From a virus (lineage: Duplodnaviria > Heunggongvirae > Uroviricota > Caudoviricetes): a stretch of 4,538 nt of DNA. Position 1 is the first letter of the stretch; each line of letters begins with the position of its first letter. The stretch lies in the IMG/VR virus record IMGVR_UViG_2657245461_000004; one strand, written 5' to 3'. A program made the translations under genes and the position numbers. Shown here one piece after another: positions 1,055 to 4,538 of the stretch. Below the pieces are notes generated by a model. That model was not told the origin of the DNA. It did no database searches and saw nothing but the letters and a program-made list of their open reading frames with translations.

Positions 1055-1684
1055 TCAGCCCCGGCTGGATCCAGTCATCAGGCTCTTTCTTAAAGGGGGA
1101 GTATTGAAATCACGAAGAAGAGCCTCCCGCACCGCAGCATCCATGTCTGCACCACTGGCAAGTGCTTCAATCTCTGCCGCCACCTGCAAATACCCCATGC
1201 AACGGCCAATGCGTTTCATAACTCTGGTGTTTTCGTCTTTCAGGCATCTGATAGCGAGATTAATAATTTTCAGGCAGTGATGATGCGATGCCCGGACAGG
1301 TTTTCCGTTCTCATAAACGACGAACTCACCCTCTTCACAGGAAACCCTGAAAGGCCGATGGGGTTCCTGGTCTTTATCCGGTGCAGACGCAATAAAATCA
1401 CTTTTATGCTCTTCCTCTCCGGCACTGTTAACCGTAATGACGTACTCAGGCCGCAGGTAAGCCGCCTCTTTTTCTGACAATGCGGCCGGTAAAAACTTTT
1501 CCTGCAAAAACTTCATAAAAGTCTCGTGAGCGACTTTGTGGCAGTAATCGTAAATCGCCGCATAATGCTCATCGCGGCGTTTGTTTTCATCTTCAGAACT
1601 CACCAACGCCGACAATTTTTTATTAAGCTCAGTGATTTCATTTTCCAGGTGATTGAATCGCTGATTCATTTCTTCATGCTTCAT
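1055..1684 (-). CDS. hypothetical protein, 209 aa, acidic, no TMD; inserted between pinholin and endolysin
   Basis: Long ORF starting ATG 1684..1682, 4 nt after the holin-A stop (TAAATAATG), with an SD-like GGGGAGAG upstream. N-terminal coiled-coil-like segment (EEMNQRFNHLENEITELNKKLSAL), several Cys/His (YCHKVAH, HHHC). I recognise no family from the sequence. Coding status is supported by length, coupling and absence of a competing sense-strand ORF. Confidence 0.6.
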   Translation of the reverse strand: MKHEEMNQRFNHLENEITELNKKLSALVSSEDENKRRDEHYAAIYDYCHKVAHETFMKFLQEKFLPAALSEKEAAYLRPEYVITVNSAGEEEHKSDFIASAPDKDQEPHRPFRVSCEEGEFVVYENGKPVRASHHHCLKIINLAIRCLKDENTRVMKRIGRCMGYLQVAAEIEALASGADMDAAVREALLRDFNTPPLRKSLMTGSSRG

Positions 1685-1687
1685 TAT

Positions 1688-1873
1688 TTACTCTCCCCGT
1701 GCAGCCTTACGCTTGTCTTCTCTTATTTTGAAATACAGATTCGTCAGATAAGTCAGAAGCCCCAGAAGCAGACTTCCCAGCACACCAATCGCAGCCCACT
1801 GTGATGGCCTGACCTGATCCAACCACTGCAAAAACCAGTAGCCGGCACTGCCGGCGGGGGGGCCGTAGGCAAT
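1688..1873 (-). CDS. S: class II pinholin (S21-like), copy A, 5'-truncated by scaffold gap
   Basis: Translation ...[61 protein letters not shown], stop TAA 1690..1688. About 88% nucleotide identity to copy B. The N-terminus is lost in the N-run. The G7 homopolymer at 1856-1862 at the contig end may be a sequencing error (it gives PP where copy B has TS). Confidence 0.7.
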
Positions 1874-1883
1874 NNNNNNNNNN
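1874..1883. other. assembly/scaffold gap (10 N)
   Basis: Run of 10 n. Flanked by a truncated pinholin copy on one side and the first 14 nt of an endolysin-like gene on the other, so this is a contig junction. Confidence 0.95.
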
Positions 1884-1897
1884 AATGATGGCGACAT
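1884..1897 (-). other. 5' fragment of a second SAR-endolysin gene (MSPS-), cut by the gap
   Basis: ATG 1897..1895 overlaps the holin-B stop TAA (TAATG) and reads M-S-P-S-L/F before the N-run. As recalled, phage 21 R begins MPPSLRK immediately after S. SD-like GAGGTGA upstream. Confidence 0.45.
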
Positions 1898-2112
1898 TAT
1901 TCACCTCTCGCAGCCTTACGCTTGTCTTCTCTGATTTTGAAGTACAGATTTGTCAGATAAGTCAGGAAGCCCAGAACCAGACTCCCCAGTACACCAATCG
2001 CAGCCCACTGTGACGGACTGACCTGATCAAGCCACTGTAAAAACCAGTAGCCAGCACTGCCTGCGGAGGTGCCGTAGGCAATGCCCGTTGAAATTTTGTC
2101 CATGGATTTCAT
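1897..2112 (-). CDS. S: class II pinholin / antiholin, S21-type with dual starts (S71/S68), copy B
   Basis: 71 aa [71 protein letters not shown]. Two in-frame Met (M1, M4) separated by a Lys, a Gly/Ala/Ser-rich TMD1, a hydrophobic TMD2 and a basic C-tail. Essentially the phage 21 S21 sequence as I recall it. SD GGAGG 7 nt upstream of ATG 2112. Confidence 0.9.
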
Positions 2113-2243
2113 AGCCTCACCTCCGCAAATAACGGATGGCGTAGTTTTACACTGAGAAATGAAAGGGATTTGAAAAGAAAAAAACGCAAAAGCGGGCGAA
2201 ACGATATATACAGTAAGGAAAGCACTCTATCCAACAAACCACC

Positions 2244-2391
2244 CACAGTTAATCGGAATAAAAGCAGAGTGCTTATGAATGATCGCACGCCCGAAGGTTA
2301 GTATTTCTGCACAGCAATTTTGCAAAAAAAGGCGATCATTCATAACTTAAACGTCTTTCAGTCACTCCGGGATTTCCCATCATCGCAGACT
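2244..2391. repeat. 148-bp repeat, copy X (direct repeat of 2403-2550, 145/148 identical)
   Basis: Direct alignment with copy Y shows 3 mismatches (2287-2288 ac vs ct; 2331 g vs a). Contains a 14-bp inverted repeat (2273-2286 / 2332-2345, 45-bp spacer) and an 11-bp stem arm at 2353-2363. Ends at the N-run. Confidence 0.9.
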
Positions 2392-2401
2392 NNNNNNNNN
2401 N
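2392..2401. other. assembly/scaffold gap (10 N)
   Basis: Run of 10 n between two near-identical 148-bp repeat copies. Confidence 0.95.
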
Positions 2402-2402
2402 T

Positions 2403-2550
2403 CACAGTTAATCGGAATAAAAGCAGAGTGCTTATGAATGATCGCCTGCCCGAAGGTTAGTATTTCTGCACAGCAATTTTGCAAAAAAAAGCGATCATTC
2501 ATAACTTAAACGTCTTTCAGTCACTCCGGGATTTCCCATCATCGCAGACT
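2403..2550. repeat. 148-bp repeat, copy Y, immediately downstream of the tRNA cluster
   Basis: Same unit as copy X. Nested inverted repeats: 14-bp arms 2432-2445 / 2491-2504 (ttatgaatgatcgc) with 45-bp spacer, and 11-bp arms 2512-2522 / 2547-2557 (gtctttcagtc / gactgaaagac) with 24-nt loop. Confidence 0.9.
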
Positions 2551-2563
2551 GAAAGACTCTGAC

Positions 2564-2638
<75 letters not shown>

Positions 2639-2641
2639 ATA

Positions 2642-2717
<76 letters not shown>

Positions 2718-2719
2718 AC

Positions 2720-2796
2720 TGGACCGCCACCGGGGACTCGAACCTCGCACACTCAACTTAAAGGGTTGACGCTCTTTCCTGATGAGCTAGTGGCGG
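2720..2796 (-). tRNA. atypical tRNA-like gene, anticodon UUU (Lys) if functional; possible pseudo-tRNA
   Basis: Reverse complement CCGCCACUAGCUCAUCAGGAAAGAGCGUCAACCCUUUAAGUUGAGUGUGCGAGGUUCGAGUCCCCGGUGGCGGUCCA folds as a cloverleaf with a perfect 7-bp acceptor stem and anticodon stem UCAAC/GUUGA. Non-canonical features: loop CCUUUAA has C at position 33, the 5' end is C1, the discriminator is U73, and the T-stem has an A-C mismatch. Confidence 0.5.
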
Positions 2797-2797
2797 T

Positions 2798-2873
2798 TGG
2801 TGGCCCTTGCTGGATTTGAACCAGCGACCTGGCGATTATGAGTCGCTCGCTCTCACCACTGAGCTAAAGGGCC
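2798..2873 (-). tRNA. tRNA with anticodon CAU, most similar to tRNA-Ile2 (lysidine-modified, AUA decoder); Met not excluded
   Basis: Reverse complement GGCCCUUUAGCUCAGUGGUGAGAGCGAGCGACUCAUAAUCGCCAGGUCGCUGGUUCAAAUCCAGCAAGGGCCACCA. Canonical cloverleaf, anticodon loop CUCAUAA. About 90% like E. coli ileX as I recall it, with C4-G69 and C5-G68 acceptor pairs. Same position as ileZ in Stx-type phages. Confidence 0.8.
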
Positions 2874-2882
2874 GGGCGCAGG

Positions 2883-2911
2883 ATAATAACGTTACGAAAT
2901 CAATGTTGCAA
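2883..2911 (-). promoter_or_regulatory. candidate sigma70 promoter for the tRNA cluster
   Basis: On the minus strand: TTGCAA (2911..2906), 17-nt spacer, TATTAT (2888..2883). The first tRNA 5' end (2873) lies about 10 nt downstream of the -10. Sequence-pattern prediction only. Confidence 0.45.
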
Positions 2912-2975
2912 GCATTCAAAAATCACCCTTATCTCCTCCACCAGCGCATTCACCATGTCTATCCGAGATAAGTGG

Positions 2976-3004
2976 CACAAAAAACCCGCTTGTGGGCGGG
3001 TTTT
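2976..3004 (-). terminator. intrinsic terminator (tR'-like), potentially bidirectional
   Basis: Minus strand AAAA-CCCGC-CCACAA-GCGGG-TTTTTTGTG: 5-bp GC stem, 6-nt loop, U6 tract. The plus strand reads as a hairpin followed by TTTTGTTTG. Lies about 70 nt downstream of the putative late promoter. Confidence 0.65.
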
Positions 3005-3054
3005 GTTTGCTTTTGCCATCACGTACAAAATCGGCAAAGTATCAGATTTGCATG

Positions 3055-3083
3055 AATATATGCCTTTCAATCTACTTTTGCAA
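3055..3083 (-). promoter_or_regulatory. candidate late promoter (pR'-like) overlapping the 3' end of Q
   Basis: Minus strand TTGCAA (3083..3078, within the last Q codons), 17-nt spacer, TATATT (3060..3055) directly after the Q stop. This is the position expected for pR'/qut in lambdoid phages. Sequence-pattern prediction only. Confidence 0.5.
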
Positions 3084-3755
3084 CACTTTGCTTTGAAAAT
3101 GCCGTCTTTTTTTTGAACGTGTTCTCATTACAAACAATAAAGCCTCACTATCCAGTCGGTGAAAAATGTGTTTCATTGCAACCCAGTGACGAGTAAATGT
3201 TTTGGACCAGTTTTTAGTTGTCACTCCCGCCAGTAATGCCAGCTCCTGGTATTCATAACCTTCCCCACCAAAAAGTTCTGCTTTTACTGCCTGCGCCGCC
3301 AGCCAGATTAATTTTTTCAGGCGTTCCTGCGTTTTCCCTGCAATTTTTCTGGTACCGGATTGAGCATTAAATTCATTCCACGCCCACTGTGTTATCGCGA
3401 TCTGATATTCCCAACAAATACTCCCGCTGTAACACCACAACAACCAGGCTTTATAGTGCTCTTCAAGAGACAGAACAGCCCGCCGCCACGATGATGTCGA
3501 AAACTCAACCGGACTGACCAGAGGAATTGACGTCCCCTTCGCCAGCGATTGCTTTCCCGGGATTGGTGGATTATCCCGCGTTATCATTTTTCCAGTCACT
3601 TCATCGCGGTACCGGATTTTTTTACGCCTGTAACGCCCTGTATCGAACATGGCATTCTCTTGCCAGGCTTCAAGCTGACCTTTTGTTGCCCCACTCAAAT
3701 CAGCGGTGGCGATAATGAGCTGCTCACGCACAAACTGTAAATACTGGTTATTCAT
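3072..3755 (-). CDS. Q: putative late-gene antiterminator Q (non-lambda type)
   Basis: About 227-aa ORF whose ATG (3755..3753) overlaps the rusA stop (ATGA). The ORF track starts at GTG 3761. Position between rusA and the pR'/tR'/tRNA/lysis block matches Q of lambdoid phages. Several Cys/Trp-rich segments. The call is mainly by synteny; I cannot verify homology without a search. Confidence 0.6.
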   Translation of the reverse strand: MNNQYLQFVREQLIIATADLSGATKGQLEAWQENAMFDTGRYRRKKIRYRDEVTGKMITRDNPPIPGKQSLAKGTSIPLVSPVEFSTSSWRRAVLSLEEHYKAWLLWCYSGSICWEYQIAITQWAWNEFNAQSGTRKIAGKTQERLKKLIWLAAQAVKAELFGGEGYEYQELALLAGVTTKNWSKTFTRHWVAMKHIFHRLDSEALLFVMRTRSKKRRHFQSKVLQK

Positions 3756-4117
3756 GCGCACCCCAGTTCTGTGATTTTTATCCCCAGCCGCCCACCAGGA
3801 ACGAGCTGACCGCGCACAATATTGATTTCATCAAACTGCTCGTCGTCTATAAGTAGTCCAGCATGCGTCAGCGCATCCAGCGGTGCCTTCAGGATATTGT
3901 CCAGGTCACGACGGCGCTTATCCGGTGGCTCTGCAATAATCTTTATCGCCAGCCTTCCGGACAGGTTTAATTTCAGTCGCTGCTGGCGAACAATTAGCGC
4001 CACATCACGGCGATAACGCTCACCGGCTTTTGATACAAAATATGTGCTGCCACGACGTCGCCAGTAGGTGTTCACCGTTGGCGGGTAAGGCAAAACAAAT
4101 TCTATGCGTTCGGTCAT
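3752..4117 (-). CDS. rusA: crossover junction endodeoxyribonuclease RusA (Holliday junction resolvase)
   Basis: 121 aa with the RusA family pattern LPYPPTVNTYWRRRG ... PDKRRRDLDNILKAPLDALTHAGLLIDDEQ ... GGRLGIKITELG. ATG 4117 directly follows the upstream TAA (TAAATG). Confidence 0.9.
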   Translation of the reverse strand: MTERIEFVLPYPPTVNTYWRRRGSTYFVSKAGERYRRDVALIVRQQRLKLNLSGRLAIKIIAEPPDKRRRDLDNILKAPLDALTHAGLLIDDEQFDEINIVRGQLVPGGRLGIKITELGCA

Positions 4118-4387
4118 TTATGCTTTCCACTTCAGAACACCCGAATTTCTCGCGTGCATTAAAAAACGAATCAGCAACAACAACTGACTACCGTGTTTTT
4201 CTTCAAAATCTTTTACCCCGGCGTGTAGTTCGTTATGGCATTTACGACACAGCGGAATAACAAACAAATCGTCAGCCTTTGTTCCCATCCCTCCCAGTCC
4301 ATGACCAATGATGTGGTGCGGATCATCTGCCTGATTGCCACACGTCATGCATTTCTGCGTTTTTACCCAGCGCGTGTATACAGGCAT
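4118..4387 (-). CDS. ybcO: YbcO/DUF1364-like putative zinc-binding nuclease; true start uncertain
   Basis: The C-terminal 89 aa from ATG 4387 (SD-like GGGAAGAG upstream) carry the pattern C-x2-C ... HHIIGHGLGGMGTKADDLFVIPLCRKCHNELH, matching the E. coli YbcO motif as I recall it (G-L-x-G-x-G-x-K-x-x-D-L ... C-x-x-CH-x-E). The frame is open upstream through GTG 4459 to the window edge, so the gene may be longer or 5'-truncated by the window. Confidence 0.6.
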   Translation of the reverse strand: MPVYTRWVKTQKCMTCGNQADDPHHIIGHGLGGMGTKADDLFVIPLCRKCHNELHAGVKDFEEKHGSQLLLLIRFLMHARNSGVLKWKA

Positions 4388-4538
4388 CTCTTCCCGTTGT
4401 GGTTTCTGGCGCTGGAGATACTGAGCCGGAGATTCCGGATCAACGGCAATGCTGACCACCGTCTCTTCCTGTGGTGGATTCTGTTGCTGGTGGGCGTGAG
4501 GCAGCGGCGCAAGATTTTTTGTGCGCTGCTTCAGTATG

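Follow-up and report, generated by a model that had tools for sequence, protein, structure and literature searches.

What does a small soluble protein contribute when its gene is wedged between the holin and endolysin genes of a lysis cassette? The question is raised by a 209-codon open reading frame, hereafter X, located between a pinholin gene (S) and a SAR-endolysin gene (R) in a viral scaffold of 4,538 nt, hereafter the window. In phage 21, the same type of holin works without an X-like gene. A preliminary description of the window recognised no family for X and proposed lysis timing, defence, anti-defence or superinfection exclusion as candidate roles. For the window itself, the weight of the question is small, as X is a catalogued gene with copies in RefSeq, placed in the standard arrangement of E. 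coli lambdoid prophages and, in this copy, frameshifted. At the family level, the question is of modest interest: the genes lie inside or beside the pinholin/SAR-endolysin cassettes of numerous prophages of Escherichia, Shigella and Salmonella, Stx phages among them, and a role, if worked out, could add a component to phage 21-type lysis or reveal a late-phase modulator of RNA decay. The literature found on ydfR, DUF1327 and genes intervening between S and R consists of one paper on RNase E (PMC13232886) and general surveys of Stx phages that do not discuss X. The sole experimental lead for the X family is therein, namely the binding of RNase E by its partner domain YdfR (PMC13232886).

Composition of the window and contiguity of the X locus

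All genes of the window are encoded on the minus strand and correspond to the late region of lambdoid prophages (Table 1). The window is composed of three contigs joined by two gaps of ten Ns, and the flanks of the second gap (2392-2401) overlap each other (2244-2391 versus 2403-2550; 148 nt, 98% identity). The sequence beyond the first gap (1884-4538) maps with 99.6% identity to positions 650,844-653,339 of FDAARGOS_944, a DLP12-like locus with the order hokD-DUF968-RusA-Q-tRNAs-holin-rrrD-Rz that belongs to a prophage other than the X-bearing one; the holin-X-lysozyme segment of FDAARGOS_944 is found at 5,021,971-5,023,062, approximately 0.7 Mb away. Judged by this context, pinholin B belongs to the DLP12-like prophage rather than to the X locus. 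It is directly followed there by the rrrD lysozyme, to which the MSPS start belongs, so that the TAATG junction with MSPS described previously is indeed present (1884-1899) and represents the rrrD start. As contigs of two prophages meet at the gap at 1874-1883, the pair of pinholin contexts previously assigned to one junction is an artefact of scaffolding and does not represent alternative forms of one locus. An apparent open reading frame of 69 aa (1688..1897, MSPSXXXX...) was rejected as a gene, as the ORF finder had read through the Ns. The practical lesson is that N-gapped scaffolds may juxtapose parts of different prophages and thereby mimic tandem lysis genes.

The X-bearing part of the window is recovered from complete chromosomes. 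Positions 59-1873 are 99.1% identical to the chromosome of E. coli CFSAN029787 (locus L001) and positions 1-1873 are 99.2% identical to that of Shigella flexneri SFBU1023; both contain a complete 71-aa holin gene, X, the lysozyme gene and Rz in contiguous order. The full 71-aa holin directly adjoins X upstream in L001 and in locus L011. Altogether, six complete E. coli chromosomes and one Shigella flexneri chromosome contain the X locus without interruption and, because of this contiguity, the S-X-R setting of X is real and not the chimeric mis-assembly that had been considered.

Table 1. Features of the window and positions of the antisense gene in related loci.
Feature	Position (nt)	Strand	Remarks
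Rz1 o-spanin, 64 aa	45-239	minus	embedded in Rz, +1 frame; lipobox-like LIMVVGC, Pro-rich tail
Rz i-spanin	55-474	minus	PF03245, E 2e-23; phrog_13
SAR-type lysozyme, 177 aa	456-989	minus	downstream of X; PF00959, E 5e-24; phrog_7 endolysin
Ancestral 3' end of X, out of frame	1032-1094	minus	encodes FKKEPDDWIQPGLTYLKRRI and a stop; three-frame translation
X, 209-aa ORF	1055-1684	minus	ATG start; short form of the PHROG 1085/long-YdfR family, frameshifted allele
1-nt deletion site, C5 run	1091-1099	minus	gapped blastn against relatives
Pinholin A, P21 S-type	1688-1873	minus	3' 62 codons only; 5' part lost at contig end
Shine-Dalgarno GGAG for X	1694-1697	minus	within the 3'-terminal part of the holin gene; 9 nt before the X start codon
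N10 gap	1874-1883		joins contigs of two different prophages; mapping onto FDAARGOS_944
rrrD-type lysozyme, first codons (MSPS)	1884-1897	minus	overlaps the pinholin B stop (TAATG)
Pinholin B, 71 aa	1897-2112	minus	MKSM dual start; PF04971, E 1.4e-35
Four-tRNA array between Q and holin	2564-2873	minus	Gly(TCC), Thr(TGT), Lys(TTT), CAT-anticodon tRNA
Antiterminator Q	3072-3761	minus	229 aa; PF06323, E 4e-91
RusA	3752-4117	minus
DUF968/HNH	4118-4459	minus
Antisense gene, copies in relatives	L002 3654-3968; L008 2970-3284; L095 2993-3307; L098 495-812

Within its locus, X is present as described, co-oriented with its neighbours and tightly packed between them. The holin/X junction reads ...GGGGAGAG TAA ATA ATG, i.e. 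the stop codon of the holin gene (1688-1690) is followed by 3 nt and the start codon of X (1682-1684), and the minus strand upstream of X (ACGGGGAGAGTAAATAATG) carries the good Shine-Dalgarno sequence noted earlier (Table 1). Downstream, 65 nt (990-1054) separate the stop of X at 1055 from the ATG of the lysozyme gene at 989. No promoter-like or terminator-like site was found between S, X and R. The GC and GC3 contents of X are similar to those of the neighbouring genes and present no foreign signature. The translation of the lysozyme gene contains a Gly/Ala-rich, SAR-like N-terminal segment and an E-x8-D-x5-T motif, and the probable start of Rz is the ATG at 459. The 3' end of Rz/Rz1 is lost at the edge of the window.

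X as a short form of the YdfR family

The profile of PHROG 1085, a family annotated as of unknown function, aligns to X over residues 1-209 (profile positions 117-288 of 296; E 1.2e-73), and phmmer searches with X returned E-values down to 1e-131. A search of 5.8 billion proteins identified 132 relatives, and all named ones are from E. coli or Shigella. Many relatives comprise 185-217 aa and start as X does. Others comprise 260-333 aa, are termed 'YdfR family' or 'DUF1327 domain-containing' and consist of PF07041 followed by an X-like part; one of them, the 333-aa 'YdfR family protein' P0004, is 82% identical to X over 94% of the length of X. The alignment of X to the long forms begins at the coiled coil, so X is devoid of the DUF1327 domain (PF07041), and Pfam searches found no domain in X at E <= 0.01 or even at E <= 5. 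K-12 YdfR aligns to positions 1-79 of PHROG 1085 and Salmonella proteins align to its C-part. X does have a recognisable family, contrary to the first assessment: it belongs to PHROG 1085 and represents the C-terminal module of the NCBI 'YdfR family protein', an assignment that we hold, together with the gene context, with high confidence. It is a catalogued hypothetical prophage gene, identical copies of which are already in RefSeq. Genes 100% identical to X occur in Shigella flexneri and E. coli chromosomes, and the exact 209-aa sequence is found on at least 1000 public contigs, under the names 'bacteriophage protein [Shigella flexneri]' and 'MULTISPECIES: hypothetical protein [Shigella]', and in 12 IMG/VR contigs.

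The family is narrow. An exhaustive profile search among 1.84 billion cluster representatives returned only 39 clusters, none of which presented a fusion of the X family to a known domain; a 1074-aa HEAT-like repeat protein was rejected as spurious, the match being limited to a short helix. A further search, started from the four members of greatest divergence, returned no others. In a second profile search, the distant members were prophage proteins of Salmonella enterica, with 24-47% identity in the C-domain and tail, and the N-domains of the E. coli DUF1327 proteins and the Salmonella proteins are related in hhalign (probability 87%, E 4e-6). The ancestral architecture would therefore comprise, from the N-terminus, a domain resembling DUF1327, a coiled coil, a middle part that varies and a conserved C-domain of roughly 100 aa that ends in the tail PPFKxxPxxWxxPGxxYLKxR, and X would be the form without the first domain. 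X retains every one of the invariant C-domain columns H136, G160, L166, Q167, A169 and E171 and keeps the core H136 ... G-R-[CSA]-M-G-[YL]-L-Q-x-A-A-E-I-E. Pairwise dN/dS values among E. coli members are mostly 0.25-0.46 and reach 0.73 for pairs with the long form, which marks the X family as a genuine, moderately constrained coding gene.

Searches at the level of sequence, profile and fold gave no match to a family of defined function. Pfam, NCBIfam, PADLOC and PDB sequence searches with X, its relative P0002, P0004 and the family profile returned nothing meaningful, and no solved structure or fold match was found for the X family. Matches to YqeY, EzrA and Relaxase_C were weak, far below the cut-off, and were rejected. 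For X, P0002 and P0004, none of the defence models of PADLOC-DB 2.0 matched at E <= 1, and the Pfam and PHROG searches detected no similarity of X to a known holin or antiholin.

With regard to its physical properties, X was previously called acidic with scattered Cys and His residues; 5 Cys and 10 His are present, but the protein is only mildly acidic (pI 6.08; GRAVY -0.63). The stated lack of a transmembrane domain was borne out, as the maximum 19-residue Kyte-Doolittle mean is 0.76 and no hydrophobic stretch is present. At the N-terminus, for which a coiled-coil-like stretch had been noted, two long helices (residues 3-27 and 33-64) are predicted in the AlphaFold2 (AF2) model of X, which was built with 82 E. 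coli sequences and is of low confidence (pLDDT 47.8). For the long form P0004, modelled with Salmonella sequences added (pLDDT 57.2), only two parts score higher: the DUF1327 domain (~70-90), with three strands and a helix, and the C-domain (pLDDT about 68-79), with three short strands and three helices.

A frameshift removes the conserved tail

Every relative compared encodes the ...NTPPFKK... segment by the codons CCG/CCA/ACG CCC TTT AAG, whereas the window and its identical copies read CC-CCC TTT AAG, with the missing nucleotide placed at 1095-1099. The blastn alignments to L002 and L003-L009 all contain a single-base gap at this site, and L001 shares the deletion with the window. Because of the missing nucleotide, X ends in LRKSLMTGSSRG and the conserved tail is absent in frame. 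The tail is replaced by 12 unrelated residues and the first 197 codons, including the C-domain core, are intact. This tail is the most conserved part of the family, nearly invariant in the alignments A1-A4 and kept down to ~25% identity. The ancestral X had 217 codons, a length equal to that of P0002, and a TAA stop at 1032-1034; roughly 23 nt of the 65-bp downstream spacer given in the preliminary description were hence once coding. The out-of-frame tail presents no further damage, which indicates that the frameshift is recent. It is possible, if not the outcome that we would expect, that the allele is crippled by the loss of its tail, and it may do nothing.

The deletion also created the heptamer CCCUUUA (1091-1097, minus strand), which lies in the X XXY YYZ register of the zero frame. 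A -1 slip at this position would yield ...NTPPLKKEPDDWIQPGLTYLKRRI and restore the tail with an F-to-L change that is also seen in distant homologues; the 217-aa trans-frame product of such slippage would contain ...NTPPLKKEPDDW.... However, the 68 nt downstream of CCCUUUA, searched for a stimulatory structure, fold no better than shuffled sequences (z 0.26), and in each of the other relatives compared the tail is read in a single frame. Based on these two sequence features, programmed -1 recoding at CCCUUUA appears unlikely.

Genomic context of the family

The S-X-R order is not unusual: it is the standard arrangement in K-12 Qin (essQ-ydfR-rrrQ-rzpQ), in Stx phages and in IMG/VR loci, where the order holin, X, lysozyme is kept in 80 of 80 cases and Rz is usually next. 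The DUF1327 domain is present in six of these 80 loci. A family member is also found between S and R in O157:H7 SS17, EC332, Stx2 phage 86 (orf5), the Stx2a phage Stx2_12E129 and PhiR12_2, and about a fifth of the complete E. coli genomes (1066 of 5426) contain DNA similar to X. For Salmonella members and a 28%-identical homologue, the gene is located upstream of a PF04971 holin gene, either directly or one gene away, and one homologue on a truncated contig adjoins a GH108 endolysin gene.

K-12 YdfR (b1555, Qin; PF07041) shares the slot of X, as its gene follows the 71-aa P21-type holin gene essQ and precedes the rrrQ-type lysozyme gene, with a common orientation and a spacing of a few nt. The two proteins differ in content: YdfR (103 aa) consists of DUF1327 only and X is without it. 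The long 'YdfR family' proteins combine both, as DUF1327 followed by an X-like C-part. Further counterparts are PHROG 1085 members such as orf5 of Stx2 phage 86 and the 213-aa protein of Stx2_12E129, which present full-length homology to X (58-63% identity) and the same holin-X-lysozyme order in viable phages. In contrast to X, these members keep the C-terminal tail, and many also keep the DUF1327 N-domain. The Salmonella enterica proteins (e.g. P0194, P0166) have the C-domain, the tail and a DUF1327-like N-domain and are encoded in a late operon, adjoining a PF04971 holin and a PF00959 lysozyme gene as X does. Their genes are nevertheless placed upstream of the holin gene, after toxin-antitoxin cargo (HicAB, ParE), and not between holin and lysozyme genes.

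The S-R interval itself looks like a small cargo hotspot. In many relatives, a gene of 104-105 aa in antisense orientation is found between the X-family gene and the endolysin gene (Table 1). The copy in Stx2 phage 86 (L095) matches PHROG 1853, which is annotated as of unknown function, and several PHROG 1085 loci carry this extra gene, which is absent from the window. PhiR12_2 contains a 'DUF1823' gene at the corresponding position. In the Salmonella loci L003-L007, toxin-antitoxin cargo (HicA/HicB, or ParE and an HTH protein) lies between Q and the lysis genes, and L003-L005 encode an N6/N4 DNA methyltransferase between lysozyme and Rz.

Possible roles of X

Taken together, family and context favour, by a modest degree, a description of X as a late-expressed cytoplasmic accessory protein of the short-form YdfR-slot family. 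The family would be part of a Q-dependent late operon, always adjoining a P21-type pinholin gene where the holin is visible, and the late, Q-dependent transcript would serve for translation of X as well as of S and R, with X staying in the cytoplasm. Synthesis of X is expected to be confined to the late phase of lytic growth, given the lack of a promoter for X alone and the distance of 3 nt from the holin stop to its start codon. Phage 21 and the DLP12-type cassette of the window manage with the same holin/lysozyme pairs and no X, which places X outside the lysis machinery proper; X is thus probably an accessory gene that is dispensable for lysis, and its product would act as a dispensable factor on a cytoplasmic target of the host.

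The nature of such a target might be related to RNA. The catalytic half of RNase E (Rne 1-597/598) is a binding partner of YdfR in bacterial two-hybrid (BACTH) and pull-down assays, RNA co-purifies with YdfR, and overproduction of YdfR has little effect on the transcriptome (PMC13232886; 2026). Given that DUF1327 and the X module occur alone or fused in the same slot, a 'Rosetta stone' pattern, both could speculatively share one RNA-turnover pathway. This link of the X module to RNase E or RNA, drawn by analogy to its partner, is doubtful: the part of YdfR that binds the N-terminal half of RNase E is residues 1-72 (PMC13232886), for which X has no equivalent, and X, judged by its sequence, is without the RNase E-binding DUF1327 domain. 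Slightly less probable still is the broader proposal that the family represents unrecognised cytoplasmic late-phase regulators, which would tune pinholin triggering or redirect RNase E-dependent decay, with -1 slippage restoring the tail in the present allele.

The strict adjacency to pinholin genes in two genera could instead reflect a role related to lysis. X might act as a cytoplasmic timing regulator of the pinholin/SAR-endolysin system that binds the cytoplasmic C-terminal tail of the pinholin or otherwise delays or sharpens its triggering. T4 RIII is a small soluble cytoplasmic modulator of holin triggering, and illustrates that a protein without a transmembrane domain can regulate lysis timing; it is a functional analogy to X only, as the T4 holin system is different and neither a sequence nor a fold relationship between RIII and X was detected. 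Every family member examined adjoins a lysis cassette, with a PF04971 holin gene upstream in all 80 E. coli loci, downstream of the gene in Salmonella and the 28%-identical homologue, and a GH108 endolysin gene beside the homologue on the truncated contig, and the 3-nt distance between holin stop and X start suggests coupled expression. Conservation of gene order in lambdoid phages is nonetheless weak evidence of function, the holin type works in phage 21 and the DLP12-type cassette with no X-like gene, X has neither a transmembrane domain nor similarity to known holins or antiholins, and the wide persistence of the frameshifted allele argues against a strong requirement, all of which makes timing control an unlikely role. 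A different reading of the same slot is that of a variable 'moron' position between S and R in which X would be cargo for anti-defence, defence or superinfection exclusion. Its contents do vary, as DUF1327-only, X-only and fused forms are found, often with the extra antisense PHROG 1853 gene, and modular shuffling, fairly fast evolution (according to the dN/dS values) and the narrow host range are in agreement with cargo. Yet X matches no PADLOC model, resembles its neighbours in GC and GC3, and lies without a promoter of its own on the same strand and in the same operon as S and R. X would accordingly be silent in lysogens, a timing unsuited to prophage-encoded defence and late for anti-defence; the idea of defence or exclusion put forward for this gene is unsupported and the least probable of the roles considered here.

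Some probability, below that of the accessory role and above that of timing control or cargo, has to be given to the possibility that this particular copy has no role and is a non-functional remnant, i.e. a gene hit by a recent frameshift in a Shigella/E. coli prophage under decay and kept only by hitch-hiking. The deletion has removed a 20-residue tail conserved down to ~25% identity, the otherwise undamaged out-of-frame tail dates this event as recent, and many Shigella flexneri assemblies contain the allele in essentially unchanged form, which is consistent with clonal spread. On the other hand, the 197 leading codons with the invariant C-domain core are intact, purifying selection acts on the family as a whole, activity can survive truncation, and low-level -1 slippage on CCCUUUA could, as far as the sequence suggests, bring the tail back. 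A late accessory function of the family, with X as its truncated allele, is preferred here.

Additional features of the DLP12-like part

Several elements of the DLP12-like contigs were noted in passing. The Q open reading frame is intact in the window, while the 99.6%-identical FDAARGOS_944 locus is annotated as a frameshifted pseudogene. In the tRNA array, the tRNA with the CAT anticodon was called Met by ARAGORN and its FDAARGOS_944 counterpart is annotated as tRNA-Ile; it is probably of the lysidine-modified Ile2 type. The X-bearing prophage of CFSAN029787 carries the set Gly-Thr-Arg-Ile instead of that of the window. A GC-rich hairpin with A/T runs on either side (AAAACCCGC...GCGGGTTTT) is located at 2981-3004, ~70 nt downstream of Q, and the minus strand carries a promoter-like TTGCAA-17-TATATT sequence at 3083-3055. 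The arrangement of this putative promoter and hairpin fits pR' and tR' of the DLP12-like prophage.
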